Shown piece by piece: positions 1,718 to 64,000 of a DNA stretch of 64,000 nt. The DNA is taken from assembly GCA_014382705.1 (NCBI GenBank), contig JACNJE010000095.1, positions 303-64,302 on the forward strand. The letters run 5' to 3'. This DNA is from Verrucomicrobiota bacterium. GTDB taxonomy: Bacteria > Verrucomicrobiota > Verrucomicrobiia > Limisphaerales > UBA1096. Within the stretch, counting starts at the first letter, position 1; the number at the start of each line of letters is the position of its first letter. A program made the translations under genes and the position numbers. Under the pieces are notes generated by a model, which was given only the letters and a program-made list of their open reading frames with translations, searched no databases and was not told where the DNA came from.

Positions 1718-1731
1718 CGCTTGGCCAAGCG
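1718..1731. repeat. first copy of the highly iterated palindrome CGCTTGGCCAAGCG
   Basis: Perfect 14-mers by eye start at 1718, 4286, 7628, 10040, 11638, 14210, 17921, 19724, 20416, 22604, 25882, 26942, 30737, 32915, 36226, 41627, 45367, 47798, 50930, 56035, 59928 and 61372. Two degenerate copies follow within 90 bp of this one (1741, 1803). Confidence 0.95.
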
Positions 1732-1815
1732 GTGGTTGCCCGCTGGCCAAGCGGGCGGGGACAGTATCCGCCGACTCCAAACGGGTCAAGATTGCCCGCC
1801 AGTTGGCCAAGGCCG

Positions 1816-1902
1816 CGATTTGACTCAAAAAGAATGTTACCGAAGCGGAGGCGCGGGGCTGCTTGGGCGGCCCGGTTGACTCAAAAATGGGTGTTACCGA
1901 AG
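1816..1902 (+). repeat. two imperfect tandem copies of TTGACTCAAAAA-N4/5-GTTACCGAAG (1820-1845, 1876-1902); a 16-nt part CGATTTGACTCAAAAA recurs exactly at 2262-2277
   Basis: Read directly. The copies sit immediately upstream of the transposase fragment, and the third copy is at its truncation point. Possible IS terminal sequence. Confidence 0.6.
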
Positions 1903-1903
1903 A

Positions 1904-2269
1904 ATGAACACCGATATGAGCCAAAAGAGCCGTCAGGAACTACTGATACAGATGCGCCGGCGCTACCTCCGCGCCGGGCGAACCTACAAGGCCCGACTGC
2001 TCGACCAACTGGTCGAGCTCTTCGGCTACCATCGCAAGGCCGCCGTGCGCGCCTTGCGCCCCAAACCGCCGCCAGCCCGAGCCCCGTTCGCGCGCGGTCG
2101 GCCCAGGACGTATGACCCGGGTAAGCTGCTGCCGCCGCTCAAGGCGATCTGGCTGGCAGCGCTGCAGCCGTGTGGGGTGCGCCTCAAGGCCTGCTTGCCC
2201 GACTGGGTGCCGGCCTATGAAGAGGAGCATCGCCAGCTTGATCCCGACGTGCGCCAGGCGTCGATTTGA
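1904..2269 (+). pseudogene. N-terminal fragment (about 120 aa) of a DDE (rve-type) transposase, family uncertain
   Basis: MSQKSRQELLIQMRRRYLRAGRTYKARLLDQLVELFGYHRKAAVRALR...LKAIWLAALQPCGVRLKACLPDWVPAY resembles, from memory, the HTH N-terminus of integrase-core transposases. No catalytic domain follows. The ORF ends at the 16-nt repeat. Confidence 0.5.
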
Positions 2270-2277
2270 CTCAAAAA

Positions 2278-2852
2278 ATCAGTTTGAAACCATCCATCCG
2301 TTCTTGGATGGCAACGGGAGGATTGGGCGGCTGTTGATCCCCCTGTTTCTTTGTGATCGCGGGAGCCTCTCGCAACCGCTGCTCTATTTGTCCGGTTTCT
2401 TTGACGAAACACGGGACGACTACTACCGCCACTTGCTGGAGGTCAGCCAAACGGGACGTTGGCGGGAATGGGTTGAATGCTTTCTCCGCGGAGTACGCTT
2501 GCAGGCCAAACGCGCGTTGGAGGATACGGAACGCATTCTGGCGTGCTATGGCCAATATCAAACACGGTTGAAAGCAGGAAAACGGGTTCCGCAGGAGGCG
2601 GCCCGTGTTCTCGACCAAGTCTTCGCCAACCCCTTTCTCTCCATCGCCAAACATGCGAAGCGAGTCGGGATCACTTATCCAAGGGCCAAACGCGGAGTGG
2701 ATTTCTGGATCAACGAGGGGCTGTTGGTGGAAACCACCGGGCAACGCCGCAATCGCTTCTACGTGGCGGATGAACTTCTCCAGATCATGTCGCCCCCTTC
2801 ATCACCCGTGAACGCGACGCTTCCGGATGACAACGCGGAAGAGCAACCATGA
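2278..2852 (+). pseudogene. 5'-truncated Fic/DOC family protein (C-terminal about 190 aa)
   Basis: The Fic motif HPFLDGNGRIGR begins only about 5 codons after the junction repeat. A C-terminal winged-helix-like tail is present (RRNRFYVADELL). The whole N-terminal half of a normal Fic protein is missing. Confidence 0.75.
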
Positions 2853-2898
2853 TGATCCATGCCATTCGCCCCCAACGCCCCCGCAGGAGATATGCACC

Positions 2899-3816
2899 AT
2901 GAAAGATCAGGCCGCCTTGGAAGAATTCGTGAACGATGTCATCCAGACGGAAGGACTTGACGTGGGCATCGATGCCAAGGTGGCTCTGTTAAGTTACGCC
3001 ATGGACGAACTGCAACGCTCCCGTTCCGTCAAAAAGCCCCCGGTACGATTTGAAGAATACGTCCAATGCGAGCGGTTTGCCGACTTAGGCACACTTTGGT
3101 TCACCGCCCCAAAACATTTCGAGGATAACGGCACCGGCACGGCACCCATCCGATTGCAGGCGCCGCTACTGCTGTTTCTGCTTATTCACCATCACCAAAA
3201 ACGGCCGGTCTTCGACCTGATTGGGAGGTTCATCGACAAGGTCACCCCGAGACTGAAGCCGTTGGATTTCAAAAAGACAAAAACCGGTGTTACCCGTTGC
3301 CACACGAACACTCGATTCGCAGCCAACGTCCTCCGAAAATACGGCCTGCTCAAATATACCCAACGCGAAGCTTTCAAAACGTGGGAACTCTCCATCGCCG
3401 GTTGCCTTGCCGCCGCAAAGATCTACCAACGTTGCGTGAACGAAAGCGAATCGTGGACGATTCCATCGCACAAAAAGTGCGGCAACTTCGATCTTCAGGA
3501 AGAGATCAGGGCGGCATGGGAGGGACTTGCCGACTACGATTCGTTCGTGAAAAGGCTGGCGTCCATTTGCATACCTGACGCAAATGTGTTCAAGACATTC
3601 AAACCCACGCTCGAATACGCTTACAAACTGTTGAAGGAGTATTGGGAAAACATCAACAACCCGAGTATCACTCAAAAAGAACGACGCGGAATCAGCTGGG
3701 AGAAGATCATCCAGCTAGAGGCACAAGACGCAGACAACGAGTTTTACGAAGACTTCTCCAGTTGCATCCAAATCAACGCACTGCTCGATCAACTCTCCTC
3801 AACTCATCAAGGGTAA
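2899..3816 (+). CDS. hypothetical protein (305 aa from the ATG at 2899)
   Basis: Long ORF with an AGGAG motif 10 nt upstream of the ATG. GC is lower than the window average and it contains no palindrome copy. No domain recognised. Confidence 0.5.
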   Translation: MKDQAALEEFVNDVIQTEGLDVGIDAKVALLSYAMDELQRSRSVKKPPVRFEEYVQCERFADLGTLWFTAPKHFEDNGTGTAPIRLQAPLLLFLLIHHHQKRPVFDLIGRFIDKVTPRLKPLDFKKTKTGVTRCHTNTRFAANVLRKYGLLKYTQREAFKTWELSIAGCLAAAKIYQRCVNESESWTIPSHKKCGNFDLQEEIRAAWEGLADYDSFVKRLASICIPDANVFKTFKPTLEYAYKLLKEYWENINNPSITQKERRGISWEKIIQLEAQDADNEFYEDFSSCIQINALLDQLSSTHQG

Positions 3817-4140
3817 TACCCGTGCACCTGTTGACAAGACAAGGGTCGCAAAATCACTATCTCCTTCCGCCCAACGAATAAGGACCGCCCATTTGGTGGA
3901 TTTTGTGTGAGCGGGAATCCATTTCCATCCAACCTCCCGTCGAAAAATCGCAACCCCCTCCAGCCCTGTCCATGAGGACATTTTAAAAGAGTTTTGACAG
4001 TGAAGTCTCGCCCGGGGTTCCCGGCCGCCGGGGCGTAGCCGAGTCCGGAAAGCGGCGGTACCGCTCAGGCGGACGGGGTGAGCTACGGGATTTGTTTGGG
4101 TTGCCATCCGGCGGAAGTTGGGTATCTTCCCGCCAAACGA

Positions 4141-6246
4141 ATGGTTTGGTTGATGATGACCCCTCGTACCATACTTATTCTGGCCTGTGCCGTGATGTTT
4201 CATGGAGCAGCCGTTGGTGTGTCGTTGTCGGCCTCGCGCGTGGACGCGCTGCTGGCGACAGACAACCAGGGCGGCGGCGGGGTGGCGCTTGGCCAAGCGC
4301 TGGACGACCTGGCCTTTCTGCGCAAGGCCACCCTCGACATGGTGGGGCGGATCCCGACTCACGCGGAAATTCTGCAGTATCAGCGGTGGCCGTTGGCCAA
4401 GCGGCGGGCGATGCTGGTTGAGCGGCTGCTCAAGGATGACGGGTTCGCCGACCGCTGGACGGTGTTCTTCGCGGACCTGCTGCGCATCCGCAGCCGGGCC
4501 GAGGGTGGCAACCGGCTGCTCGCTTACGTGCACCAGTCGATCGAGTCCGGCAAGCCGTGGGATATCATGACGCGGGAATTGATCGCGTCCAGCGGCTCGG
4601 CCGGCAAGGCCCCGTCGGTCGGGTTCTTGTTGGCGGACGATTCCGACCCGATGGCGATGGCTGCCGCCACGGGGCAGATTTTCATGGGCGTGCGCATGGC
4701 CTGCGCGCAGTGCCACAACCACCCGTTCGACAAGTGGCGCCAAAAACAGTTTTACGAGCTGGCCGGTTTCTTCGGAAAAACCCGGCAGGTCGAAAGCCGG
4801 CTCAGCAATAAGACCTACGTCACCGAGGGGGAGGAAATGAAGGTGCTGTGGCCGCCGGAACGCCGCAAGCCGAAGCAGCGGTTCCCGGTGGCACCCAAGT
4901 TTCCGTTCCCGATCGATGACACTGCGGCCAAGCCGGACCACCTGAAACGACTCGAGGCGTTGCGGGCCGGGGAACTGAATGCGGACAAAAAGCAGAGGGA
5001 AACCGACGCGCTGGATGCGTTGATCGATGCCGTGGGCGCACCCGAATCGCCCGGAGCCGAGCCGGCCGGCCTCGACGTGGCCCGTGAAGCGAAGGCGGAC
5101 ATCCGCAAACTCAATGTCCAGGGCGACCTGTACCGGCGCAGCGAGTTGCGCACCGAGTTGGCCCGGATGGTGACCCATCCCCAAAACCGCTACTTCGCGC
5201 GAAACCTCGTCAACCGCGTCTGGGCAGAATTGCTGGGGCGCGGCTTTTACATGCCGATCGACGACTACCAGGGCGAGGTCACGCACCCGAAAACCGTCGA
5301 GCACCTGTGCGACGAGTTCGTCGCCAACGGCTATGATGTGCGATTCCTTTTCCGGACGATTCTGGAAACCGACGCGTACGCCCGCGCGCCGCTCGGTGCG
5401 GAGGCCGGGAACGAGGCGCGGGAGGCGTCGCAGGCGGCTTTCGCCTCCGGCATCACGCGCCGGATGGTGAGCGAGGTGCTCTACGACAGCATCGTGATCG
5501 CCGGTCACCTGCAGGATTACAAATGGCCGAAGGGCGCCAACGTGCGGGCGTTCGAGCGGCGGGTGCGCGTGCCGCTCGACCCCGATCCCGAGGCGGCGGC
5601 ACCGGCGGAAGCCGAAGCGGAGCTTGGCCAAGCGGAGATAAAAATGGCCGCCAAGCCCAAGCCGTACGACTTGGAGCAGGTCATCTCGCTGAACTTCGAC
5701 AAGTTGGCGACGTCCGATCTGGAACAGGACTTGGGCCGGATGAAGGTGATGTCGGATCAGGAACTCGAGGCCAAGCGGATGGCCGAGATGGCCCGGAAGA
5801 AAAAATCGCTCCGCCGCCGGTACACCTACAAGACCGTGACGGAGGAGGTCGACGACAACCCGCGCTTCTCCAGCTCGATGCGCATGGCCACCCCGGCCGC
5901 GCCGTCGCATTTTCTGCGCGTATTCGGGCAGCCGTCCCGCGACGGGCTGGGCGAGTTCCGCGAGCACACCCCGTCGATGCGCCAGGCGCTGATGATGCTC
6001 AACGGCAAGGCCACGCACGAGGCGTCGCGCGTCGGGCCTTACGAGCCGATCCACCGGCTGCTGACCGGCGAAGGCAAAAACTTGGCCAAGGCGGTGGAGC
6101 TGGCCTACCTCGAGACCCTGACCCGCAGGCCAAGCGCGGAGGAACAGGCCGAGGCATTGGCCGTGCTTGGCCAAGCGCCGCTGGAGGGGATGGCCGACCT
6201 GCGCTGGGTGCTGCTCAACAGCCACGAATTCCGTTACCTCCCGTAA
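4141..6246 (+). CDS. DUF1549/DUF1553 (PSD1) domain protein, secreted
   Basis: Signal peptide MMTPRTILILACAVMFHGAAVG, the CAQCHNHPFDKW motif typical of DUF1549, and a C-terminal ...LRWVLLNSHEFRYLP typical of DUF1553. The start is chosen at the Met preceding the signal peptide; the ORF opens at 4078. Confidence 0.85.
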   Translation: MVWLMMTPRTILILACAVMFHGAAVGVSLSASRVDALLATDNQGGGGVALGQALDDLAFLRKATLDMVGRIPTHAEILQYQRWPLAKRRAMLVERLLKDDGFADRWTVFFADLLRIRSRAEGGNRLLAYVHQSIESGKPWDIMTRELIASSGSAGKAPSVGFLLADDSDPMAMAAATGQIFMGVRMACAQCHNHPFDKWRQKQFYELAGFFGKTRQVESRLSNKTYVTEGEEMKVLWPPERRKPKQRFPVAPKFPFPIDDTAAKPDHLKRLEALRAGELNADKKQRETDALDALIDAVGAPESPGAEPAGLDVAREAKADIRKLNVQGDLYRRSELRTELARMVTHPQNRYFARNLVNRVWAELLGRGFYMPIDDYQGEVTHPKTVEHLCDEFVANGYDVRFLFRTILETDAYARAPLGAEAGNEAREASQAAFASGITRRMVSEVLYDSIVIAGHLQDYKWPKGANVRAFERRVRVPLDPDPEAAAPAEAEAELGQAEIKMAAKPKPYDLEQVISLNFDKLATSDLEQDLGRMKVMSDQELEAKRMAEMARKKKSLRRRYTYKTVTEEVDDNPRFSSSMRMATPAAPSHFLRVFGQPSRDGLGEFREHTPSMRQALMMLNGKATHEASRVGPYEPIHRLLTGEGKNLAKAVELAYLETLTRRPSAEEQAEALAVLGQAPLEGMADLRWVLLNSHEFRYLP

Positions 6247-6259
6247 CACCAAAACGATC

Positions 6260-7525
6260 ATGAAAGAGACAGGATGCCTTGATTATCAATTGACCCGGCG
6301 GCGCATGATGCAGGCGACCGGGGCGAGCCTTTTGGGGATGCCGGTGGCGCGCCTTCTCGCCGCGCACCACACGTCGGCCGCCGCCAAGGCCAAGCACGTC
6401 ATTCTATTCTGGAACGGCGGCGGCATGAGCCACGTCGACACGTGGGATCCCAAGCCGGGCCGTCCGGTGCAGGGTGACTTTTCCGCCATCAACACCTCCG
6501 CCGACGGCGTCCAGATCAGCAGCATCTTTCCAAACCTCGCCAAGCAGATGCACCACTGCGCGCTCGTGCGATCCATCGCCGGGACGAACGGCGCGCACGG
6601 CCGCGCGACGTACGAGCTGCAGACCAGCTACAACATGGACCCGTCGCTGATCCACCCCGGCCTCGGCTCGATGGTCGTTCACGAGAAGGAACGGCTCGGC
6701 GACCTGCCGTCGTTCATCACCATCAACGGCCAGGCGCCCAGGTCCGGCTACCTCGGCCAGCGCTGTGCCGCCTATTTCATCGGCGAGCCGGGCGAGAAGG
6801 ATCCGTACCTTGCCTTCCCCGCCGGCATCAACCAGTTGCGCGGCAACAAGCGGCTGGACCTGCTGGCCCGCATGAACACCCGCACCACCCGGCGGAGCGG
6901 CAACACCAACTTCAAGGCCACCGAGACGGCCATCAAGGAGGCGGTCGCGCTGATGAAGAGCCCGACACTGAACGTGTTCGACCTCGACAAGGAGAACCCG
7001 GACACGCTGGCCCGCTACGGCGACACCGACTTTGGGCGGGGCGCACTGCTCGCGCGCAAGCTGGTCGAGACCGGCGTGCGCTTCGTGCAGGTAAACCGCG
7101 GCGGCTTTGACACCCACTCCAACAACTTCCCGGCGATGGAAAATCACGGGCTCGAGATGGACCCGGCGCTGGCGGCGCTGATCGAGGACCTGGCCGCCAG
7201 CGGCAAACTCGACTCGACCGTCGTGCTGGTGCTCAGCGAGTTCGGGCGCACCCCGCGCATCAACAACAACGCCGGGCGCGACCACCACGCGAGCTGTTTC
7301 AGCTGCCTGATCGCCGGCGGCGGCATCCGCGGCGGCCGGGTCGTCGGCGCCTCCGACCGGGACGCGATGGAGCCGGCCGAGCGCCCGGTCAAGCCAAGCG
7401 ACCTGCACGCCACCGTCTGCCACGCGCTTGGCATCGACCACGAAAAGGAAGTCTACACCCCGCAGGATCGGCCGATGGTCCTGGTTCGCGAGGGCGCCAA
7501 GCCGGTGAAGGAACTGTTCGCCTGA
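6260..7525 (+). CDS. DUF1501 domain protein (sulfatase-fold, Tat-type signal)
   Basis: TRRRMMQATGASLLGM, VILFWNGGGMSHVDTWDPKP and SEFGRTPRINNNAGRDHH. It lies 13 nt after the PSD1 gene, the canonical PSD1-DUF1501 pairing. Confidence 0.85.
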   Translation: MKETGCLDYQLTRRRMMQATGASLLGMPVARLLAAHHTSAAAKAKHVILFWNGGGMSHVDTWDPKPGRPVQGDFSAINTSADGVQISSIFPNLAKQMHHCALVRSIAGTNGAHGRATYELQTSYNMDPSLIHPGLGSMVVHEKERLGDLPSFITINGQAPRSGYLGQRCAAYFIGEPGEKDPYLAFPAGINQLRGNKRLDLLARMNTRTTRRSGNTNFKATETAIKEAVALMKSPTLNVFDLDKENPDTLARYGDTDFGRGALLARKLVETGVRFVQVNRGGFDTHSNNFPAMENHGLEMDPALAALIEDLAASGKLDSTVVLVLSEFGRTPRINNNAGRDHHASCFSCLIAGGGIRGGRVVGASDRDAMEPAERPVKPSDLHATVCHALGIDHEKEVYTPQDRPMVLVREGAKPVKELFA

Positions 7526-9963
7526 TGCCGGGACCCATGCCACGACCGCGCCGCCGTCCATGGCGGCGTTTTTGTGTCGGGCGGCTTTTGTTGCCCGCGT
7601 TGGGCGGCGCCTTGGCCGTTTCACTCGCGCTTGGCCAAGCGGCGAAGGAGACCAAGCCGGGGCCACCGCGCGGGTCGATCGTCGAGGATCGCGCCGCACG
7701 CAGGCTGCTCGAGGCCGGGGATCTGCGGATGGATGCCGGAGAGAGCGACAAGGGACTCGAGCTGTGGCGCTCGGTCATCGAACGGTATCCTCTGAGCAAA
7801 GTCCGGTTCCTGGCCCACATGAAACTGGGTGAGCACCATCTCACCGTGCTGGCGGATCATGCCAAGGCGCGCGCCCACTTCGAGGCGGTTTATTCGGTCG
7901 AAAACCGGGACGAAGACCAGCGGGCGCTGGCCCTGTTGAAGACCGGTGTCTGCCTGTACGAGGCCCGGCAGTACGGGCAATGCTTCAAGATTTTCCGGCA
8001 AGTCATCGGGGACTACCCCGTGTCGCGGCACGTGAACCGCGCCTACTACTTCATCGGCCTCGGCCACTTCAAGCAGGGCCACTACGGGCGCGCAATCGAC
8101 GCGCTGGAAAAGGTCGGCACGGTGACCTCAACCAACCGGCTTGGCCAAGCGAAGCTCGAGATCGGCAAGCGCCTGTTCATCAAGGTCGAGGACGCCGATC
8201 TCGCGGTGCTGAAAAAGGACGAGACCGTTCGGGCAACCTGCAAAACCACCGGCGGCGATGAGGAAACGGTCGACTGCCTCCCGCTTGGCCGCAACGTGCG
8301 GGTGGTGCTCGGCTCCACTGCCACCCGGCTGGGCCGCCCGAGCGCGAACAACGGCGTGTTGGAGGTTTCCGGCCGGGATGAAATCAGCGTCCGCTACAGC
8401 GACGAGCACACGGCCGGCGGCCAGTTGAACCAGGAACGCCTTCGCAGGCTCACCGTTGCGGGCAACGCCGCGGCGCGGATCATGGACGGCGCCTTCGTCG
8501 ATCCCATGGACGGCGTGGTCGTTGGCAAACAGGTGAACGTCGAGATTGTGGATGCGGACCGGGACCAGACGGATGACGCCGACTGGGTAGAGGCACAGGT
8601 GAAGCTGTACCGGAAAAAAACCGCTGCCGAGATTGAGGAGGAGGCCAACGAGCGCGCCGCCGAGGAGGCGCTTAACAGGGAAGCCGAGGGACGGGTGGTC
8701 GCCGAGGATGCCCCGAAAAAGGAACTCAGCGATGAGGAAAAATTCCAATTGCGACACCACCTGATCGACCAGGCCCGGCTGGTGGCCACCGAGGTCGCGG
8801 TGGAATCGGCCGACAGCGGACCGCCGCCACCCGGCGAACCGGAAGCCCCGGCGGAGGCACTGTCGCCCGGTGACTTGAGCGGCGATGCCAAGCCGAACAG
8901 TGGATTCGTCGCGCTCGTGGAGGAGGAGGCCCGGGACGATTCCATCCACACCGGGTTGTTCCAAGGCTCGCTCCCCGTGCGTCAGGCGCGGGAGGTCGTG
9001 GCCGGCGACGCGGTGCTGCAGGCCGTGCCGGGGGACATCGTGCGGGTCGAGTACCTCGACCAACTCAACACGACGCCGGCACCCCGGCGGCTCTCGGCGC
9101 GCGCGGTCTGCATCGAGGGCAGCCTCGGCGACGTGCGGGTGGCCAAGGCGCAGATTCCCGACGAGGATCTCCGGTTGCGGACGAAGCTCAAGACGGCTCG
9201 CGCCCTGACCAAGATAGGCAGCCATTACAAGGAATTCGGGCTCGACGATCCCGCCCGCATCAAGTTTCGGGAGGCGCTGGAGGTGGCCGAGGAGGCGGCC
9301 GCGCGCGGCCGCGAACTCCAGAGTCCCGTGCTGGAACAATGCTACGTGCAGCTTTGGGAAATCTATTTTGCCCTCGACGACCTGCGCCTCGCGGTGGCGA
9401 TGAGCCAGCGTTTGATGCGCGAGTTTCCGGAGAGCACCTTCATCGACGACGCGATGCTCAAGCAGGCCGAGATCGCCCGCAAACAGGGCGGCTTCCGGGA
9501 AGCCATCGCGCTCTACGGCAGCCTGCTCAAGCTCAACGCGAGCACCCTGCGCGACGAGGCGCAGTTCGGCATCGCCGTGTGCTATGAAAAAATGGCGGAA
9601 GCCGCCACCGGCTCGCGTTCGCAGTCGTACTACGAGAAGGCGTTCGAGAATTACCAGAAAGTGTACGAGCAGTTCCCGGAGAGCGGCCGGGTCGGGGATG
9701 CCGTGGCGCGGGCGGCGAACTACTTTTACCAGCGCCAGGATTACCAGCGGGCCATCGACGTGTTCGAAGGCGTCATCGCCAACCACCCGGACGCCAACTT
9801 CCTCGATGTCATCCATTTCAACTACGGCCGCTGCCTGTACCGCGTCGACCGCAAAAACGCCGCCCGCCAGCAATTCGACCTGCTGGTGGCCGATTATCCG
9901 GAGAGTAAACTGGCCGAGGAGGCCAAGCGCATCAGCGACGCCCTCGTAAAGGCCGGGTTTTAA
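7525..9963 (+). CDS. secreted TPR-repeat protein (812 aa) with central DxDxD beta modules
   Basis: The start overlaps the DUF1501 stop by 1 nt. Signal peptide ends ...AVSLALGQA. TPR-like helices sit at both ends. Central modules include FIKVEDADLAV...ISVRYSDEH and VNVEIVDADRDQTDD. Confidence 0.8.
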   Translation: MPGPMPRPRRRPWRRFCVGRLLLPALGGALAVSLALGQAAKETKPGPPRGSIVEDRAARRLLEAGDLRMDAGESDKGLELWRSVIERYPLSKVRFLAHMKLGEHHLTVLADHAKARAHFEAVYSVENRDEDQRALALLKTGVCLYEARQYGQCFKIFRQVIGDYPVSRHVNRAYYFIGLGHFKQGHYGRAIDALEKVGTVTSTNRLGQAKLEIGKRLFIKVEDADLAVLKKDETVRATCKTTGGDEETVDCLPLGRNVRVVLGSTATRLGRPSANNGVLEVSGRDEISVRYSDEHTAGGQLNQERLRRLTVAGNAAARIMDGAFVDPMDGVVVGKQVNVEIVDADRDQTDDADWVEAQVKLYRKKTAAEIEEEANERAAEEALNREAEGRVVAEDAPKKELSDEEKFQLRHHLIDQARLVATEVAVESADSGPPPPGEPEAPAEALSPGDLSGDAKPNSGFVALVEEEARDDSIHTGLFQGSLPVRQAREVVAGDAVLQAVPGDIVRVEYLDQLNTTPAPRRLSARAVCIEGSLGDVRVAKAQIPDEDLRLRTKLKTARALTKIGSHYKEFGLDDPARIKFREALEVAEEAAARGRELQSPVLEQCYVQLWEIYFALDDLRLAVAMSQRLMREFPESTFIDDAMLKQAEIARKQGGFREAIALYGSLLKLNASTLRDEAQFGIAVCYEKMAEAATGSRSQSYYEKAFENYQKVYEQFPESGRVGDAVARAANYFYQRQDYQRAIDVFEGVIANHPDANFLDVIHFNYGRCLYRVDRKNAARQQFDLLVADYPESKLAEEAKRISDALVKAGF

Positions 9964-9972
9964 AGAAACGAA

Positions 9973-48604: not shown

Positions 48605-48634
48605 CGTCGCAGAGACTCCAAGCCCACCCAAGCG

Positions 48635-56054: not shown

Positions 56055-56510
56055 CTAAATATTCTCCTTTGACGCGTCGGGGTCTTCCCCGGCCGGCTTC
56101 TTTGCGCCGGGGGGCGGCTCGACCACGACAACCGGCAATGGGTACCGCAACTTCATTACGTCGTCGACGATCACCTCCACGGTGTACACGCCGGGTGCCT
56201 CAAACTTGGTGCCGGCGAACACCGCGATGTTGGTCGCGTGATGCGCCGGGTCGCGCAGCATAAACTTGGTCTCGCACTTGCGGATGACCGTCTCCTGGTC
56301 AGGCGCGGTGAGGCGAATGTTCTCGTGGAATTCGCCCACACCGGCGACCCAGCGGGTGAACACGCACAGTTTGCCGGCGACGATCGGCAGCTTGGGCACG
56401 CGGATGGCACCGATGATGCCCAGCGCGATAAAGTTGCCGGTGACCTCCTGCCGCACGTCTTCGCACAGCACGGAGCATTGCAGGTCGGGGAGTATTCGGG
56501 AGGCTTGCAT
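56055..56510 (-). CDS. hypothetical protein (151 aa)
   Basis: Clean ORF with a plausible beta-rich sequence. No motif recognised with confidence. Confidence 0.5.
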   Translation of the reverse strand: MQASRILPDLQCSVLCEDVRQEVTGNFIALGIIGAIRVPKLPIVAGKLCVFTRWVAGVGEFHENIRLTAPDQETVIRKCETKFMLRDPAHHATNIAVFAGTKFEAPGVYTVEVIVDDVMKLRYPLPVVVVEPPPGAKKPAGEDPDASKENI

Positions 56511-57422: not shown

Positions 57423-58582
57423 CAGGGAATGGTCTTGAGCGTGCGCACGTCGAGCAGCGGCAGCGCGGGCCAGCGCGGATCGATAGCCTCGATGCCGGTG
57501 AGGACAACCCGGCGGTTGCGCAGCATGCTCATCAGCCGCTCGAAGGTGATCGGCTCGCCGTCGCCGCTGTCGGCGGTCTTGAGCGGCCCGGAGTCGGAGG
57601 AGTAAAGATAGTTGATCGTCCGGCCGTTGTCGTCGAGCAGCTCGAACCGGCTCGGGGCCTTTGGGCTTCGGAAAAAGCGCCGCTTGATTCTGCCTTCGCG
57701 GGTGACGATGCGTGGCGGCGGCACCGGCAGCTTCGCCTCGGTGACGGCGGGGGCCGTTTCCAGCTTGGCTTCCTCGGCGTCCTCCGGGTTGCCCATCGGC
57801 GGCTTTTGCGTTTCGGCGGCCTCGGTACCGTCGGCGGCTTCGACCACGACGACCTCCGGCTCTGGCGGGTCCGGCATGTCCCCGGGCTCGGGTGTTGTCT
57901 CTGGTTCGCCCTTGACCTCGGCGACCGCTTCCGGTTCGGCCGAGGTTTCCGCCGACTCCGTTGCTTCAGCAACGTCTGCATTGCCCGGCTTGGCCTCGGG
58001 GGCCGCTTGCGGCTCTTCCGTTTCGGCCGCCTCGGCCGGTTTGGCCTCGGGCGTTTCCTCCGGCTGGGTCTCTTCGGCCGCCTCCGCTTGGCCAAGCTCA
58101 ACGAACTGGGCCGCGATGTAGGCGTGCGCGCCGGCGGGATGCTCGATCTCAATCCAGTCGCCGGCGGTGCGTTTTTCCTTCACGGCATCGCCCTTGGCCA
58201 AGCGCCCGACGATGCTGAACCGCTCGCCGCCCCCGGCGCGGACGTTGAGCTTGCTGGTGGTCACCTTGCCCTCCTTGACGAAACTCATGTGCACCCACGT
58301 TTGCCCGGCGGCCGGCATGGCGATCCTGAGCCAGTCGGCCGGCTCGCCGTCGCGCGGCGGGGCGACGGTCACCTTGGCCAGCACCGTCACCCGGTCGCCC
58401 TTTCGCAACTGGGTGACACGCTCGCCGATCAGGCTGGCCCGGGCGCGGACGTTGACGCGGTCGGCTGAGACGGTGGCCGATTCGGGGGGGGCGACTTCGC
58501 TGACAACCTCCTTGGCGCTCAGGCCTGAAACGGCCACGAGCCAAGCCAGCGCTGGGACGGGGAAACGGCCAACTGCTTTCAT
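57422..58582 (-). CDS. secreted SH3b-domain protein with a long acidic Glu/Pro/Ala-rich linker
   Basis: Signal peptide MKAVGRFPVPALAWLVAVSGLSA. Two SH3b-like segments (VNVRARAS...GDRVTVL and LNVRAGGG...GDAVKE). A low-complexity run of about 110 aa. The ORF-track N-terminal extension to 58771 is judged spurious. Confidence 0.7.
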   Translation of the reverse strand: MKAVGRFPVPALAWLVAVSGLSAKEVVSEVAPPESATVSADRVNVRARASLIGERVTQLRKGDRVTVLAKVTVAPPRDGEPADWLRIAMPAAGQTWVHMSFVKEGKVTTSKLNVRAGGGERFSIVGRLAKGDAVKEKRTAGDWIEIEHPAGAHAYIAAQFVELGQAEAAEETQPEETPEAKPAEAAETEEPQAAPEAKPGNADVAEATESAETSAEPEAVAEVKGEPETTPEPGDMPDPPEPEVVVVEAADGTEAAETQKPPMGNPEDAEEAKLETAPAVTEAKLPVPPPRIVTREGRIKRRFFRSPKAPSRFELLDDNGRTINYLYSSDSGPLKTADSGDGEPITFERLMSMLRNRRVVLTGIEAIDPRWPALPLLDVRTLKTIP

Positions 58583-58616
58583 TGGACGCCGAGTGTGAAA
58601 CGACCCCGCACCCGTG

Positions 58617-59360
58617 TCAATTCCGCCGGGCGGCTCGCGGCGTTTTTCCGGGCGGCCTGAGACACGACGCGACCTCGGTCCGGCTGAGCGGACGCCACTT
58701 TCCGGGAGGCAACTCGCCCAGCTTGACCGGCCCGACCGCCACCCGCTGAAGGCGCAACACCCGGAAGCCAAGCGCTTTAAACATCCGGCGCACCTCGCGG
58801 TTTTTGCCCTCGGCCAGCACCAGTTCCGCCTCGCTGCGGCTGTTGTTGGCGGTCAGGAGCCGGGCGCGCTTGGCCTTCAAAAAATCCCGCTTGTCGCGCA
58901 GGCCGGCCGTGAGCCGCTCCAGCGCCTCCGGCCCGAGCCGCTTGGCCACGGTCACCCGGTACGTTTTGAGCAGGCCGTGACTCGGGTGCGCCACTCGCTG
59001 GCAAAACTCCCCGTCATTGGTCAGCAGGATCAGTCCCTCGCTGTCGGCGTCGAGCCGGCCAACGGTGTAAAGGTGTCCCCAGTCCGCCGGCAACAGGTCG
59101 AACACCGTCCGGCGATCATGCGTGTCGCGGCGGGTGCAGAGAAACTTGGGCGGCTTGTTCAGGGCGACGAAGCGCTTGGCCAACGGCTTGAGCGGCCGGC
59201 CGTCGAGCGACACCGCGCTCGTCGCGGGATCCACCTTCGTGCCGAGCAGCCGGACGACCTGGCCATCGACAGTGACGCGGCCGGCGACGATCAGCTTCTC
59301 GCCTTCGCGGCGTGAAGCCACTCCGGCCTCGGAGAGATATTTTTGGAGTCGAACCGTCAC
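58617..59360 (-). CDS. RsuA/RluB-family pseudouridine synthase (S4 domain + catalytic domain)
   Basis: RLQKYLSEAGVASRREGEKLIVAGRVTVDG (S4 domain). ...VGRLDADSEGLILLTNDGEF is the catalytic Asp motif. Confidence 0.9.
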   Translation of the reverse strand: MTVRLQKYLSEAGVASRREGEKLIVAGRVTVDGQVVRLLGTKVDPATSAVSLDGRPLKPLAKRFVALNKPPKFLCTRRDTHDRRTVFDLLPADWGHLYTVGRLDADSEGLILLTNDGEFCQRVAHPSHGLLKTYRVTVAKRLGPEALERLTAGLRDKRDFLKAKRARLLTANNSRSEAELVLAEGKNREVRRMFKALGFRVLRLQRVAVGPVKLGELPPGKWRPLSRTEVASCLRPPGKTPRAARRN

Positions 59361-59943: not shown

Positions 59944-61428
59944 TTAGTTGAGTTCGCCGGGGGGGATTTCGTTGAGGGTGTAGTAGCCGACCGGGTGCAG
60001 GATCGGCAGGCCGTTGGCCGAGCGGACGCCCTCGGCGTGCAGCTCGTGGACATTCCCATGGATGAGGCTGTCCACGGTGAGGCGCACGGTTTTCGGGCCG
60101 GTGACCTCAACGCCCGTGATCTTCGGGGCCGTTTTGTCGACGACCGGGCTGCCGTAGTCGGCGCGGTAAATATAGGTGTAGGCGCTCATGCTGTAGGAAG
60201 CCAGGTCGCCGGCACTCACGGCGTCCACCTCATGCGTGAAGGTCAGTTCAAAGCCGTCCGGCTTGGCGCGCATCTCGTGGATCTCGAACGGCACGCCGCC
60301 CTTCCACGTGACGCGGTCGAGCGCGAACCGCTTGCCGCCCCGGGCGCCCCAGCCGCGGTCAGTGCCGCCGACAAACAGCGTGCCATTGGGATGCATATAG
60401 GCGCTGATGTTCCCGGAGCCGAAGCCCTTTAAAAACGAGAATGCCGCGCCCTGGTAGACGCCGTTGACCTTCTCGAGAAAGGCACGATTGACCACCGAGA
60501 AGGTCTGGTCGCAAACGAGCAACTGGTTCTTGAACGGGCCGAATTTGCCGTTGCTGTCGTAGGCGAAACCGCTGGTCGAGTTGCCCAGGATGCCGTGCGG
60601 GAACACGATGGCCGACGGCACGAGATTGGGGATTTTTGCCCGCTCGGCCACCCACCGGCTGTTGGTCTTCGGTTCGGTGGGGCGCTTGCCCATCGACGCC
60701 TTCGCCGCCGCAGTGTCGTACCAGCGGAAGCCCCCGGGGTGGCCTTGGAACGTCCCGTGCGAGAGTGGCTTGAGCGAGCTGGAGCCGTTCCACGGGCCTT
60801 GGTTGTCGGCGTAAAACGCCTCGCCCAAATGATTGAGACCGATGCCGCCCGGCGAGCGGATGCCGCTGGCGGTCGGGATGAGTTCGCCCTCTTTCGTCAC
60901 GCGCACGCACCAGCCACGATAGTCAATCTGGCTGGAAAACGAACCGGTGAGGCAGAGCACGATCCACATGTCGCCGTTCGGGTCGGGCCGGGTGCCGAAG
61001 GCGTACTCGTGGTAGTCGCCGGTGATGCCCCAGCCGTCATTAACCGTCTCGAAAACGTCGGCGCGGTCGTCGCCGTTGACGTCCCTCATGCGGGTCAACT
61101 CGCCGCGCTGGGTGCAGTAGAGCCAGCCGTCGGTGAAGGCGAGATTCAGCGGCTCGTGCAACCCCTCGGCGTAGAGGGCCCACTCGATCTTGTCCGGCGG
61201 GCCGAACGGGTCGGACAATACATAGACGTTACCGCGGCGGCCGCAGATCGCCAGCTTGCCGCCCGGCATCATCTCGATGCCGCTGGTCTCCACCACGACA
61301 CCGTCCGGCATCGGGATGGCGTCGATCTGGTAATAGTCGGACTCGGCCGGGTCGGCGGCGCGCGGGGCGACCGCTTGGCCAAGCGCAAGGCCGGCCAGCA
61401 GTGTGAAGCGTGTCACTTGGTTTATCAT
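59944..61428 (-). CDS. secreted beta-propeller 'membrane-bound dehydrogenase domain'-like protein (PQQ/sugar dehydrogenase-like fold)
   Basis: Signal peptide MINQVTRFTLLAGLALGQA. DYYQIDAIPMPDGVVVETSGIEMMPGGKLAICGRRGNVYV resembles the PVC putative dehydrogenase family. The ORF-track extension to 61989 is judged spurious. Confidence 0.65.
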   Translation of the reverse strand: MINQVTRFTLLAGLALGQAVAPRAADPAESDYYQIDAIPMPDGVVVETSGIEMMPGGKLAICGRRGNVYVLSDPFGPPDKIEWALYAEGLHEPLNLAFTDGWLYCTQRGELTRMRDVNGDDRADVFETVNDGWGITGDYHEYAFGTRPDPNGDMWIVLCLTGSFSSQIDYRGWCVRVTKEGELIPTASGIRSPGGIGLNHLGEAFYADNQGPWNGSSSLKPLSHGTFQGHPGGFRWYDTAAAKASMGKRPTEPKTNSRWVAERAKIPNLVPSAIVFPHGILGNSTSGFAYDSNGKFGPFKNQLLVCDQTFSVVNRAFLEKVNGVYQGAAFSFLKGFGSGNISAYMHPNGTLFVGGTDRGWGARGGKRFALDRVTWKGGVPFEIHEMRAKPDGFELTFTHEVDAVSAGDLASYSMSAYTYIYRADYGSPVVDKTAPKITGVEVTGPKTVRLTVDSLIHGNVHELHAEGVRSANGLPILHPVGYYTLNEIPPGELN

Positions 61429-61454
61429 TTTAAAATCTCCTTTGTTTTCAGGGG

Positions 61455-63038
61455 TTACAGGTTCCACTCGTACTGCTGCTTGAGGGTCGCCTGGCCATCG
61501 ACGTTTAGCTTGATGAGCAGTTCCTTGCGGCCGCCGCTCGTGCGGATCAGCGGCTTGGCCTCGAGTTCCGGGAAGCTGACGCGCAGCATCGAGCCGCCGA
61601 TGTTGTAGCCGCCATCCTGCTCGGTGATCGAGTCGGCGGCGGCGGCGAGGTACCACACCTCGCCGGTTCCGCGGATGCGAAGCCGGCGGGTGACCGACGG
61701 CAGCGCGCCGGCCTTCGGTTCGGCGTAGTCGGCCACCTGCAGGTCGTCCCCGATCTTGTATCCGAAGATCGGGCGCCGGTGCTCTGGGAGAAGAAAGTAG
61801 CCACGAAACTTCAGGCCCTTGGCGCGGGTGTCGCGGCCCTCGGCCCTTGGCCAAGCGGCGTCCGCGCTGTCGAGTTGCGCGAACGGCTGGTCGCGGGTGA
61901 GCTGGATCAGGTAGTGGCCGGACGGTCGCTGGAAGCCTTGGCCGCGGCCGTTCCAATGCCGCGCCGCATCCATGAACGCGCCGTGCCACAGCATCGCGAT
62001 CTGCATCGTGTTGGCGTCGAAACAGAGGTTTACTTTTTCCGGATAGCCGACGCCGATGCCGCGCGGGCTGGCACCCTCGATGAAGTTGCGGTAGACGCGC
62101 GCCTCGTCGTTGACGGCGATCGGATTGCCGGTCGGGAAGGCCGGCCCCCGGCGCGGCGGCTGGATGGTCTGCTTGGCCAACTGCAGGCGCTTGATGCCAG
62201 GGCCGGACATGTCGAGCGCGAGCTGCTCCTCGCCGCCTTTCTCGAAATACTCCAGCCTCAACTTCGCGGTGCCCGGCTCGAGGGCGATGCTGCCTTTCTT
62301 GGCCCGCATGCTGTGGACGCCGTCGTTGTCCACGACCAGCTTGCTGTTGATGTAAAGGCGCGAGCCGTCATCGGAGCCGAGGTTAAACGCGTAGTCGCCC
62401 TTCCGGGCGATGTCGATGTCGCCCTCGAACACCACGCCAAAATTTTCGCCCACGCCGGCCAAGCCGGGGTCGGCCGTGCCGCTCTCAGCCTTGCCGGTCT
62501 TGAACGGCTTGAGCTTGGAGAAGTCCGGCAACTTGTCCCACGATCCCTTGTAGGCGGCGAAGGTGAATCGGTTGATTTTGCCCTTGGCGATGAGGCCGTC
62601 GGGATCCTCCGTGCTGCCGCCCTCGCTGAGCGAGCGCACGTAGGCGATGAGCGCCTTCATCTCCGCGTCGTTCACGGCGGGCGGCGGCGGCATCGGCGCG
62701 GCGGCCTCCTTGGACACCTTGTCCATCGGCTTGCGGATCGACTCAGCGAAATACGCCTCGTCAAACGTCACCGTGGCGTCCGGGCCGCCGTAGCCGATCG
62801 TCACGGTGCGTTTTTTGCCCCAAAAACCGCCGATAAACTTCGGCGCTTTCATGGCGATCCCGGCCGGCGCGGGCACGCTCTCGTCCACCTGATGGCAGGT
62901 GAAACAGATTTTTGCCTGAAAGAGCGCCTTGCCCTCGGCGATCAATTTCGCGTCATCCGCAGCCTGTGCCGGCAGTAATAATCCGGCCGCCGCCAGGCTG
63001 ATGACGCACAACGATTGGCCTCGCTTGGTTCTATGCAT
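61455..63038 (-). CDS. secreted cytochrome c domain + PA14 domain protein
   Basis: Signal peptide, CFTCH heme-binding motif, and a PA14-like segment GVVFEGDIDIARKGDYAFNLGSDDGSRLYINSKLVVDNDG. The ORF-track extension to 63284 is judged spurious. Confidence 0.7.
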   Translation of the reverse strand: MHRTKRGQSLCVISLAAAGLLLPAQAADDAKLIAEGKALFQAKICFTCHQVDESVPAPAGIAMKAPKFIGGFWGKKRTVTIGYGGPDATVTFDEAYFAESIRKPMDKVSKEAAAPMPPPPAVNDAEMKALIAYVRSLSEGGSTEDPDGLIAKGKINRFTFAAYKGSWDKLPDFSKLKPFKTGKAESGTADPGLAGVGENFGVVFEGDIDIARKGDYAFNLGSDDGSRLYINSKLVVDNDGVHSMRAKKGSIALEPGTAKLRLEYFEKGGEEQLALDMSGPGIKRLQLAKQTIQPPRRGPAFPTGNPIAVNDEARVYRNFIEGASPRGIGVGYPEKVNLCFDANTMQIAMLWHGAFMDAARHWNGRGQGFQRPSGHYLIQLTRDQPFAQLDSADAAWPRAEGRDTRAKGLKFRGYFLLPEHRRPIFGYKIGDDLQVADYAEPKAGALPSVTRRLRIRGTGEVWYLAAAADSITEQDGGYNIGGSMLRVSFPELEAKPLIRTSGGRKELLIKLNVDGQATLKQQYEWNL

Positions 63039-63146
63039 GCGTGGCGCGGATGGTGCACACCCGCGCCGGTCTGTCGAGCCGTTCCTCAAAAAAGTCCATC
63101 GGGACTCGACGGCCAAGCCGCTTTTCCGTAACCAACCGGGCAGTTC

Positions 63147-64000
63147 ATGTTTCCGGTCGGTCTCTACCTGTTGGCGCTCGTCGGGGGCGCGGTGATTTCC
63201 GCGGCCTCGCTGCCGCTGTGGAAACGCTGGTGCGAACATATCGGGCTGCTGGACGCGCCAGGCCACCGGAAAATTCACGACCACCCTGTGCCGCTGGCCG
63301 GCGGCTTGGCCGTGGTCACCGGCTTGGCCGCGCCGATCCTCGCCGCCGCCGCGTGGATTTGGCTTGGCCCGTTGCCGGAATCATTCTCGCACGTCGTGGC
63401 CCACGGCTTGGCCAAGCGGGGCTGGCAACTGGCCGCCATCCTCGGCGGCGCGGTGGCCATGCTGGCGCTGGGCATTTTGGATGACCGACGCGACCTGTCG
63501 GCCAATTGGAAGTTTGCTGGCCAACTGCTGATTGCGGTCGCGGTTGCCGCCAGCGGCATCCGCGTGACGGTGTTCGTCGAGAGCCCAGTGTTCAGCTACG
63601 CCGTCACGGTGCTGTGGATTTTGACCGTCACCAACGCCGTCAATTTTCAGGACAACATGAACGGCCTGTGCGCCGGGCTGGGGCTGGTCGGTGGCTGGTT
63701 CTTCGCGTGGCACGCCGGGCTGGAGGGACAGTACCTCGTCGCGTCGCTGGCGTTTCTGTTCACTGGCGCACTGGCCGGTTTTCTGCCGTTCAACTTCCCG
63801 CGCGGCGGCGTGTTCCTCGGAGACGGCGGCAGCCACGTCGTCGGTTTCCTGCTCGCCGTGCTGGCGATCCTCCCCGATTTTCACTCTTCGGCCAGCCAGC
63901 CCAAGTGGCTCGTGCTCGCGCCGCTGCTCGTGCTCGCCGTGCCGCTGGCCGACTTGGTTTCGGTGATCCTCATCCGCCGCCGACTTGGCCAAGCGGTGTG
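63147..64000 (+). CDS. MraY/WecA-family polyprenyl-phosphate N-acetylhexosamine-1-phosphate transferase (GT4 family), 3'-partial
   Basis: My translation is MFPVGLYLLALVGGAVISAASLPLWKRWCEHIGLLDAPGHRKIHDHPVPLAGG...LGILDDRRDL...TNAVNFQDNMNGL...VFLGDGGSHVVGF. These are hallmark motifs of the family. The ORF runs off the window and is not in the ORF track. Confidence 0.85.
   Translation, partial: MFPVGLYLLALVGGAVISAASLPLWKRWCEHIGLLDAPGHRKIHDHPVPLAGGLAVVTGLAAPILAAAAWIWLGPLPESFSHVVAHGLAKRGWQLAAILGGAVAMLALGILDDRRDLSANWKFAGQLLIAVAVAASGIRVTVFVESPVFSYAVTVLWILTVTNAVNFQDNMNGLCAGLGLVGGWFFAWHAGLEGQYLVASLAFLFTGALAGFLPFNFPRGGVFLGDGGSHVVGFLLAVLAILPDFHSSASQPKWLVLAPLLVLAVPLADLVSVILIRRRLGQAV

Follow-up and report, generated by a model that had tools for sequence, protein, structure and literature searches.

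A hyper-abundant 14-bp palindrome as a lineage-specific genome tag in an uncultured marine clade of Verrucomicrobiota

A stretch of 64,000 nucleotides from a Verrucomicrobiota bacterium (GenBank assembly GCA_014382705.1, contig JACNJE010000095.1, positions 303 to 64,302; hereafter the window) carries the short palindromic word CGCTTGGCCAAGCG in numbers far above chance. Analysis of the window, of orthologous loci and of metagenome contigs showed that this word tags the genomes of one lineage, an uncultured marine clade of Verrucomicrobiota, where it was written in place by substitution and is kept. It represents a second, independent case of a genome tag of the type known from the highly iterated palindromes (HIPs) of cyanobacteria and from DNA uptake sequences (DUS).

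The 14-mer CGCTTGGCCAAGCG occurs 22 times in the window, compared with 0.00 copies expected from 100 dinucleotide-preserving shuffles. The inner 12-mer GCTTGGCCAAGC occurs 36 times and the 10-mer CTTGGCCAAG 57 times; for the latter the shuffles gave 0.10 ± 0.30 copies, and the highest single shuffle contained one. A first-pass annotation of the same DNA had listed these copies and had put the chance expectation of the 10-mer at about 0.1; all of its counts and coordinates were exact, and the expectation was reproduced. The copies form a nested series of five 16-mers, 22 14-mers, 36 12-mers, 57 10-mers, 66 copies of TTGGCCAA and 121 of TGGCCA (20.6 expected), and the density is about one per 1.1 kb for the 10-mer and one per 2.8 kb for the perfect 14-mer. 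The many one-mismatch variants mentioned in the annotation were also recovered: 20 14-mers with one mismatch (0.05 expected) and 15 with two (0.95 expected) were found, and the deviations in the former lie almost exclusively at the two outermost positions. The consensus is sCGCTTGGCCAAGCGs, a palindrome of 14–16 bp in which the core TTGGCCAA is nearly invariant. Given the core, the information declines outward through T (0.87 bit), C (0.53), G (0.58), C (0.41) and S (0.19) and is nil past ±8, so the flanks are not conserved, as the annotation had stated.

The arms of the palindrome are also enriched separately. About 100 copies of CTTGGCC lack the second arm, which is 2–6 times the codon-shuffled expectation, and the 9-mer half GGCCAAGCG has a density of 1.59 per kb in the window compared with 0.018 per kb in relatives without the word. 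This asymmetric 9-mer is enriched and conserved in its own right, and the half-sites belong to the same phenomenon as the full word.

The over-representation extends beyond the window, and its range follows phylogeny. The gene content of the window is typical of the Planctomycetes–Verrucomicrobia group (PSCyt1/2, PSD1–5, DUF1501, DUF1552 and giant TPR proteins). A search with FolD, using one genome per GTDB species, gave 80 loci, of which the best four (84–88% identity) were marine Verrucomicrobiota metagenome-assembled genomes; further loci (≤73%) included Limisphaerales, Chthoniobacterales and Akkermansiaceae. The FolD relatives and the PSCyt, PSD and DUF1501 domains agree with the annotation, which had described a HIP1-like element outside cyanobacteria. 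In this set the word was confined to the four closest loci (0–0.37 10-mers per kb), and the other 76 had essentially none. A second series, based on the 2614-aa TPR protein of the window, contained 0.48–0.84 10-mers per kb in relatives with 88, 81, 80, 70, 67 and 67% protein identity (GC content 0.54–0.61), and the word was absent from the next two relatives, at 61% (GC 0.41) and 42% identity. Over the relatives within the clade, 10-mer densities of 0.5–1.6 per kb were observed. The closest lineage without the word (L346; ERZ23498572 scaffold_1785; 61%) has a GC content of 0.41 compared with 0.54–0.66, so base composition differs greatly just where the word has been lost or is absent.

Metagenomes were scanned for two copies 20–50 bp apart, which gave at least 119 loci (923 kb), mostly from marine projects. 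Among the matches listed, 81 loci (728 kb, GC 0.50–0.65) hold four or more copies and show a host-like density. The window and these 81 loci together (792 kb) contain 669 10-mers compared with 3.8 expected, a 177-fold excess. The word occupies orthologous positions in independent assemblies from ENA, JGI, NCBI and Tara. Among everything sampled, the word thus characterises the whole genomes of one fairly broad and abundant marine clade only. The possibility that the flanks form "dialects" among the 81 loci was also considered and rejected; CGC was the top flank throughout, and its strength alone varied.

Within the window, 51 of the 57 copies lie inside unrelated genes on both strands. The statement of the annotation that copies are intragenic thus holds for these 51 and fails for six intergenic ones, including the copy at 1718 beside tRNA-Thr. 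Genic copies occupy two of the three reading frames, CTT-GGC-CAA-GCG (LGQA) in about 24 copies and (CGC)-TTG-GCC-AAG-(CGC), encoding (R)LAK(R), in about 26; the third frame, GCT-TGG-CCA (AWP), is not used by any copy in the window. When synonymous codons were shuffled within genes, 1.7 copies were predicted (maximum 6), compared with 54 observed. LAK is written TTG-GCC-AAG in 28 of 44 occurrences and LGQ is written CTT-GGC-CAA in 25 of 34, and these codons are non-preferred (TTG 18% and CTT 10% of Leu; CAA 32% of Gln). The peptide itself is also enriched, with LGQA present 24 times compared with about 0.65 expected from residue frequencies. The shortfall under shuffling, the rare codons and the peptide enrichment together indicate that the pressure acts on DNA and is strong enough to reshape proteins. 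The word colonises tolerant coding contexts, overriding codon preference and sometimes altering amino acids.

Orthologue alignments were used for determining how copies arise, whether by substitution or by insertion. In 100 comparisons in which one partner carries a copy, the other differed at one base in 49, at two in 25 and at three or more in 16; an alignment gap was found in eight, and two showed no difference over the ten bases compared. A codon alignment of 14 kb covering seven word-bearing lineages and two outgroups contained 20 site columns. The differences in these columns are substitutions, typically CTG/TTG, CAG/CAA and AAG/AAA, with the exception of one column in an indel-rich stretch. 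Because orthologues without a copy differ by base changes, copies arise by point substitution and not by insertion. One near-copy was created by AAG→TTG (Lys→Leu), and this double change prompted us to consider template switching (quasi-palindrome correction). This origin was rejected because the differences between orthologues are mostly single, and multi-base differences are below the neutral expectation.

Copies are also maintained across relatives. The set used for measuring conservation was chosen through the 2614-aa TPR protein, blind to the word, and the 10-mer was intact in 196 of 363 pairwise orthologue comparisons (54%) compared with 9.4% for background 10-mers. The window shares 8 of 13 copies with lineages about 67% identical in nucleotides, where background 10-mer identity is 4–5%. 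For the metagenome loci, the copy pairs used for selection were excluded, since the pair-based choice inflated conservation; after this exclusion, conservation was 46–63% compared with 9–40% for the background, and per-base identity was 0.91 within copies compared with 0.81 in the flanks. A first test on relatives selected through FolD had shown no excess (4 of 17 versus 29% background) and was superseded by the larger unbiased set. Occupancy flickers across the tree, as several columns are filled in the window and in distant word-dense lineages and are one mismatch off in closer, word-poorer ones. The pattern suggests a pressure that is felt across the genome, differs in strength between lineages and works on a restricted set of permissive positions, and not simple purifying selection at each site.

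The annotation had described the copies as irregularly spaced, which needs correction. Perfect 14-mers are far more even than random, with gaps of 692–5401 bp and a coefficient of variation (CV) of 0.43 compared with 0.96, a value reached in 0 of 20,000 simulations (P < 1e-4). Evenness is weaker for the 12-mers (CV 0.69, P = 0.01) and the 10-mers (CV 0.78, P = 0.03; gaps 31–3285 bp) and is absent for TGGCCA in the window. The 12-mers of the relatives gave a mean CV of 0.71 compared with 0.89 (P = 0.03), from loci that partly cover the same region, and gaps of 100–700 bp were depleted in the metagenome loci.

The 57 copies in the window are as follows, with the strand of each gene in parentheses; LGQ frame denotes CTT-GGC-CAA and LAK or RLAKR frame TTG-GCC-AAG.

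1718–1731, 14-mer, intergenic, 7 nt from tRNA-Thr (1637–1711)
4286–4299, 14-mer, PSCyt2/PSD1 gene 4078–6246 (+), LGQ frame
5622–5633, 12-mer, PSCyt2/PSD1 gene 4078–6246 (+), LGQ frame
6081–6090, 10-mer, PSCyt2/PSD1 gene 4078–6246 (+), LAK frame
6165–6176, 12-mer, end of gene 4078–6246 (+), kept in six of six word-bearing relatives
7628–7641, 14-mer, TPR gene 7525–9963 (+), LGQ frame, kept in five of six relatives
8139–8150, 12-mer, TPR gene 7525–9963 (+), LGQ frame
10040–10053, 14-mer, 2614-aa TPR gene 9973–17817 (+), LGQ frame, shared with L343/L345 (67% aa identity)
11638–11651, 14-mer, 2614-aa TPR gene 9973–17817 (+), RLAKR frame, shared with L343/L345
11745–11756, 12-mer, 2614-aa TPR gene 9973–17817 (+), LGQ frame
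11826–11835, 10-mer, 2614-aa TPR gene 9973–17817 (+), LAK frame
14210–14223, 14-mer, 2614-aa TPR gene 9973–17817 (+), LGQ frame, kept in five of seven lineages
14305–14314, 10-mer, 2614-aa TPR gene 9973–17817 (+), LGQ frame, kept in seven of seven word-bearing lineages
15790–15799, 10-mer, 2614-aa TPR gene 9973–17817 (+), LGQ frame
17921–17934, 14-mer, ExbB/MotA gene 17839–18696 (+), LGQ frame
19694–19705, 12-mer, open reading frame (ORF) 19540–20217 (+), LAK frame
19724–19737, 14-mer, ORF 19540–20217 (+), LGQ frame
20416–20429, 14-mer, DUF4159 gene 20214–21704 (+), LGQ frame
20609–20618, 10-mer, DUF4159 gene 20214–21704 (+), LAK frame
22604–22617, 14-mer, TPR gene 21674–23305 (+), RLAKR frame
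22797–22808, 12-mer, TPR gene 21674–23305 (+), LAK frame
24114–24123, 10-mer, intergenic, between convergent genes 23672–24100 (+) and 24125–24988 (−)
24176–24185, 10-mer, UreD gene 24125–24988 (−), LAK frame
24653–24662, 10-mer, UreD gene 24125–24988 (−), LAK frame
25882–25895, 14-mer, UreF gene 25578–26264 (−), RLAKR frame
26037–26046, 10-mer, UreF gene 25578–26264 (−), LAK frame
26942–26955, 14-mer, urease alpha gene 26767–28533 (−), RLAKR frame
28333–28342, 10-mer, urease alpha gene 26767–28533 (−), LAK frame
30737–30750, 14-mer, ABC-transporter permease gene 30721–31911 (−), RLAKR frame
32915–32928, 14-mer, permease gene 31829–33547 (−), LGQ frame
34871–34882, 12-mer, periplasmic binding protein gene 33672–34937 (−), LAK frame
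36226–36239, 14-mer (16-bp palindrome), intergenic, between divergent genes
36393–36402, 10-mer, ORF 36315–37595 (+), LGQ frame
37096–37107, 12-mer, ORF 36315–37595 (+), LAK frame
39916–39927, 12-mer, ORF 39212–40261 (+), LGQ frame
40549–40558, 10-mer, PSCyt/PSD gene 40316–42751 (+), LAK frame
41627–41640, 14-mer, PSCyt/PSD gene 40316–42751 (+), RLAKR frame
41821–41830, 10-mer, PSCyt/PSD gene 40316–42751 (+), LAK frame
45105–45116, 12-mer, aminotransferase gene 44237–45358 (+), LAK frame
45367–45380, 14-mer within an 18-bp palindrome, intergenic, between convergent genes, terminator-like hairpin of −10.2 kcal/mol
46708–46717, 10-mer, sulfatase gene 46322–47857 (−), LGQ frame
47798–47811, 14-mer, sulfatase gene 46322–47857 (−), LGQ frame
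48551–48560, 10-mer, ORF 47939–48631 (−), LAK frame
50635–50646, 12-mer, 1379-aa PSD gene 49988–54127 (−), LAK frame
50883–50894, 12-mer, 1379-aa PSD gene 49988–54127 (−), LGQ frame
50930–50943, 14-mer, 1379-aa PSD gene 49988–54127 (−), LGQ frame
52817–52826, 10-mer, 1379-aa PSD gene 49988–54127 (−), LAK frame
53290–53299, 10-mer, 1379-aa PSD gene 49988–54127 (−), LGQ frame
55682–55691, 10-mer, thioredoxin-like gene 54890–55822 (−), LAK frame
56035–56048, 14-mer within a 22-bp palindrome, just 3' of gene 56055–56510 (−); relatives read CTTCGCCAAG
58086–58097, 12-mer, SH3 gene 57422–58771 (−); relatives have only the half-site GCTTGGCC and CAG, where the window has CAA
58193–58202, 10-mer, SH3 gene 57422–58771 (−), synonymous CTG→TTG relative to L123/L126
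59928–59941, 14-mer, intergenic, directly 3' of gene 59944–61989 (−)
61372–61385, 14-mer, DUF7133 gene 59944–61989 (−), LGQ frame
61846–61855, 10-mer, overlap of ORFs 59944–61989 and 61455–63284
63406–63417, 12-mer, glycosyl transferase 4 gene 63132–63998 (+), LAK frame
63984–63993, 10-mer, glycosyl transferase 4 gene 63132–63998 (+), LGQ frame

Of the six intergenic copies, one lies beside tRNA-Thr, and four are found directly at the 3' end of a gene or separate two convergent genes. Three belong to longer palindromes of 16–22 bp, and those at gene ends (45367 and 56035) fold at −10 to −17 kcal/mol.

Two other Verrucomicrobiota lineages among the 80 FolD loci carry words of their own. The word AAGATCGACA occurs 17 times in 20.9 kb of L162 (QHPX01000034.1, Verrucomicrobia bacterium AV19; positions 862–17566) and four times in 5.8 kb of the related locus L161 (2738–4386). 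Its copies are mostly intragenic, encoding KID. in sense and.VDL in antisense, and are spaced more evenly than chance (CV 0.65, P = 0.025). The word (C)GCCTAACGA occurs 20–22 times in 20.9 kb of L178 (DASXOB010000007.1, Chthoniobacterales SMAG_U5369; positions 2785–17101), with an observed/expected ratio (O/E) of about 108, in several frames and with 6 of 22 copies intergenic; it is numerous in L178 alone of the 347 loci compared, four others having one or two stray copies. Both words reach about 0.9 per kb with O/E of 108–208, occur about equally in the two orientations, lie mostly within genes in several frames, lack conserved flanks and are each restricted to their own lineage. Neither is palindromic. 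This asymmetric pattern is that of the uptake signal sequences (USS) of Pasteurellaceae and the DUS of Neisseriaceae, and it is a closer match to them than the palindrome. These loci suggest that lineage-specific genome tags are a habit of the phylum Verrucomicrobiota, and the palindrome may be one dialect of such tags, or the 9-mer GGCCAAGCG overlapping its own reverse complement through GGCC.

To our knowledge, hyper-abundant short words have been described in few groups only, namely cyanobacteria (HIP1), Pasteurellaceae (USS) and Neisseriaceae (DUS), and what the palindromic ones do has been under discussion since 1993. HIPs exceed expectation 15- to 300-fold, with about one copy per kb; they lie in coding as well as non-coding DNA, lack conserved flanks and arise by substitution without indels; they are preferentially conserved and quasi-periodically spaced, and their one-mismatch variants lie mostly at the ends (PMC5861425, PMC4390886, 10.64898/2026.06.24.733823). 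HIP1 also raises transformation, an effect that depends on methylation, and has been read as an uptake or integration signal (10.64898/2026.06.24.733823; 10.1101/2024.09.10.611283). The present word shows every sequence-level property by which HIPs are recognised, namely excess, dispersal, substitutional origin, conservation and non-random spacing, and it resembles HIP1 in density, absence of flanks and end-variation as well. It is nevertheless distinct from HIP1 proper, being another word in a Verrucomicrobiota host. HIP1 (GCGATCGC) has the core CGATCG/GATC and a length of 8–10 bp, whereas the present word has the core TGGCCA/GGCC and is longer, with 10 bp nearly invariant and 14–16 bp informative. 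HIP1 is found in most of the phylum Cyanobacteria and the present word in one family-level clade of Verrucomicrobiota, and, unlike in HIP1, the half-sites are enriched independently. A literature search on the word, its core, AAGATCGACA and GCCTAACGA returned primers and unrelated uses only, and the annotation had likewise not recognised the word as a described element.

USS and DUS share with the word a density of about one per kb, lineage specificity, both orientations, permissive genic sites and effects on the proteome, and also high conservation, tract-related spacing, terminator-like intergenic copies and enriched one-mismatch variants. Karlin et al. are said to have described USS as evenly spaced in 1996. 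Intergenic DUS copies lie at gene 3' ends in (terminator) hairpins, and DUS are conserved, occupy those regions of the core genome that tolerate them and have a spacing similar to that of conversion tracts (PMC2397512). Known USS and DUS are asymmetric 9–12-mers, whereas the present word is a perfect palindrome. Given the reading of HIP1 as an uptake or integration signal, the HIP and USS/DUS families may converge.

Based on the sequence patterns and on the analogy with these families, we tentatively favour, at somewhat less than an even chance, a mechanism in which the word marks self-DNA and owes its spread and retention to a bias in uptake or recombinational integration, possibly assisted by methylation. 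When conspecific DNA is taken in or integrated by recombination, a sequence-specific step would favour word-bearing fragments, and word-creating substitutions would thereby be inherited preferentially, a molecular drive possibly reinforced by selection for "safe" exchange. Saturation would be reached at roughly one good copy per recombination-sized fragment, which could explain the even spacing. The two-fold symmetry might arise because duplex DNA is read by a homodimer, or because the unit is the 9-mer GGCCAAGCG overlapping its reverse complement through GGCC, and recognition might, as in HIP1, partly rely on methylation of the TGGCCA/GGCC core. The even spacing, deep conservation, permissive coding contexts and asymmetric words of the sister lineages lean toward such an uptake or recombination signal, and the fact that two lineages have their own asymmetric words at about one per kb fits it. 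A mosaic tract in the DUF1501 gene (6167–7525), flanked by the conserved copies at 6165 and 7628, provides evidence that diverged lineages have undergone homologous recombination. Over this gene the window shares about 74% identity with the otherwise closest L340 and about 89% with the more distant L341, and L340 and L341 are 93% alike in a short stretch. It is possible, although doubtful, that Verrucomicrobiota use lineage-specific "self" words that bias uptake or recombination, with palindromic CGCTTGGCCAAGCG in this abundant marine clade and asymmetric AAGATCGACA and GCCTAACGA in soil Chthoniobacterales.

Several points weigh against this mechanism. Known USS and DUS are asymmetric, unlike the perfectly palindromic word; and neither natural competence, nor biased uptake, nor a receptor comparable to ComP is known from Verrucomicrobiota. 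In two close pairs (96–97% identity) copies turned over at about the neutral rate, and repeated re-creation at a few permissive positions could account for part of the "conservation". The DUF1501 tract is a single case, and its ends match gene boundaries too. In the low-GC, possibly acquired part of the window (1–3800), one copy was found compared with about 3.4 expected, which is not significant. Furthermore, one-mismatch variants at the outer positions and a density of about one per kb also fit the methylation and mismatch-repair ratchet of Elhai.

Such a ratchet, in the form of the Elhai HIP model or of a Dcm/Vsr-like bias, is in our estimate a viable but rather unlikely explanation here. 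An orphan methyltransferase would mark the TGGCCA/GGCC core, and mismatch repair keyed to the mark would fix site-extending changes until saturation is reached at a density of about one site per kb. Type II enzymes typically recognise such a core, HaeIII reading GGCC and MscI/BalI reading TGGCCA, and one-mismatch 14-mers vary almost solely at the two outermost positions. The model predicts saturation near one site per kb, even spacing and one-mismatch variants at the ends (PMC4390886); the density and spacing of the word match this prediction, and a matching methyltransferase is known for every HIP studied so far (PMC4390886). However, the near-invariant 10-bp core, graded to 16 bp, exceeds the usual length of a methyltransferase site, and a type II palindromic methyltransferase does not explain the asymmetric words of the sister lineages. 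With Dcm/Vsr at CCWGG in enterobacteria, too, context-specific repair shifts how often a palindromic methyltransferase site occurs. That shift is only a few-fold and goes with depletion of T-containing one-mismatch words, whereas the present excess is above 100-fold and T-for-C variants are not depleted. All one-mismatch variants are enriched 2–30-fold, T-for-C (equivalent to A-for-G) changes being if anything the commonest in the core; CTTGACCAAG occurs 18 times, and the two transversions at this base occur 8 and 5 times. The suggestion in the annotation of very-short-patch-like repair coupled to a cytosine methyltransferase is thus not borne out by the variants. Enzyme genes were sought in six-frame ORFs from about 0.8 Mb of lineage DNA with motifs I, IV and VI of 5-methylcytosine (m5C) methyltransferases, GCFWH for Vsr and (D/N/S)PP(Y/F/W) for N6/N4 enzymes. 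The screen gave no m5C methyltransferase or Vsr candidates, a weak test with an expected yield of about 0.2 for a single-copy gene, and it was uninformative because the coverage of any one genome was low. It also gave nine NPPY-type ORFs, of which five put through Pfam were Omp85, TPR, DUF7133 and similar proteins; an N6/N4 methyltransferase was likewise not found in this DNA.

Another explanation, which we consider quite unlikely, is that the copies are individually selected sites of an abundant homodimeric DNA-binding protein serving nucleoid organisation, segregation or occlusion. The graded 14–16-bp palindrome resembles the operator of a helix-turn-helix dimer, and the perfect sites are evenly spaced and conserved at orthologous positions. 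The NBS sites of Noc, parS of ParB, SBS of SlmA and matS of MatP are likewise 14–16-bp palindromes spread over the chromosome and read by dimers, but these systems have from under ten to about a hundred sites per genome, not about one per kb. The density of the present word implies thousands of sites per genome, each of tiny benefit and paid for in rare codons and amino-acid changes, which would need implausibly effective selection. The flicker between perfect and one-mismatch states follows the genome-wide density of each lineage, so it looks like a genome-wide effect and not like site-specific selection. A role in RNA as a hairpin, terminator, dimerisation site or RNase site is very unlikely. 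As a palindrome the word would give the same RNA whichever strand is transcribed, and the extended intergenic copies at gene ends are stable; nevertheless, the bare 14-mer forms only a weak hairpin (−3.5 kcal/mol, z = −1), genes contain about 90% of the copies, and a terminator there would harm, no compensatory variation is seen, as the sequence itself and not merely the pairing is conserved, and terminator-like matches are not in excess (27 versus 19.6 ± 4.9).

An inserted repeat has next to no probability left. Numerous palindromic copies are also typical of repetitive extragenic palindromes (REP), bacterial interspersed mosaic elements (BIME), REPINs and miniature inverted-repeat transposable elements (MITE). 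These elements are 20–40 bp or longer and extragenic, with extended conserved sequence, and are moved by RAYT or other transposases, whereas the present copies are flank-less, about 90% lie in reading frames that stay open, and orthologues without a copy show substitutions and not a 14-bp gap. The orthologue alignments thus refute MITE, REP and REPIN origins and uphold the annotation, which had also dismissed CRISPR repeats and gene duplication; gaps of 31–3285 bp are not of the fixed length of CRISPR spacing, and copies lie inside genes. A by-product of a protein motif or codon usage, or an assembly or adapter artefact, is equally negligible. The word does encode common residues (L, A, K, G, Q and R), but it is found in two frames, on both strands and in intergenic DNA, the synonymous shuffling falls far short of the observed count, and its codons TTG, CTT and CAA are non-preferred. 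The orthologous positions shared across the independent assemblies refute an artefact.

The new element of this case is an independent occurrence in another phylum, with a longer word and with densities that differ among sister lineages. Its boundary is sharp, the word being present at 67% and absent at 61% protein identity, and neighbouring lineages have other, asymmetric words; such contrasts allow gene finding by phyletic correlation and the separation of drive from selection. If the uptake or recombination reading is correct, the word would provide a first indication that the widespread, uncultured Verrucomicrobiota of sea and soil exchange genes in a sequence-specific way. It would also represent an independent invention of the USS/DUS/HIP principle and a comparative system for the 30-year-old question of HIP function. 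In practical terms, the clade can be binned and tracked in ocean metagenomes with the word as a near-perfect k-mer marker (81 of at least 119 contigs at host-like density).

In IMG/VR, every 14-mer copy was single among the first 120 matches listed, as chance occurrences would be. The double-word scan gave 18 loci, mostly short tandem repeats, of which one had a host-like density. This one (L329; IMGVR_UViG_3300025936_000016, a 104.7-kb contig; positions 1918–5321) carries six 10-mers in 5.4 kb and encodes TerD, vWA-TerF-like and SLOG-family proteins and no phage structural genes, and it may represent a prophage region or else host DNA that was misclassified. The metagenome loci L205, L215, L258, L268 and L273 (GC 0.44–0.48), which also matched the double pattern, contain tandem arrays with a 42-bp period, the unit of which has CTTGGCCAAG within the near-palindrome TAACCAATCTTGGCCAAGATTGGTTA. 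These arrays are a conventional repeat unrelated to the dispersed word, because their flanks are conserved.

The window also contains a complete urease operon (ureABC and ureEFGD) adjoined by a urea/branched-chain-type ABC transporter and a porin-like gene (24125–35918), an arrangement partly retained in relatives (UreD in L341). The first 4000 positions have a low GC content (0.52 compared with 0.59–0.67 elsewhere) and carry an integrase-like ORF (101–1402, −), tRNA-Thr (1637–1711, −) and a Fic/DOC ORF (2112–2852, +); this stretch is probably an element integrated at the tRNA gene. Among other palindromes, GGGCCC is strongly avoided, with one copy compared with 40 expected in the window and an O/E of 0.09 in the 728 kb of the 81 metagenome loci. 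We considered a link between this avoidance and the word and rejected it, because relatives without the word deplete GGGCCC too (O/E 0.24). In the window and the 81 loci, GAGCTC, TTCGAA and CTAG-containing palindromes are likewise avoided and CTCGAG is in 2.7-fold excess; these avoided and over-used palindromes may be traces of restriction-modification systems.

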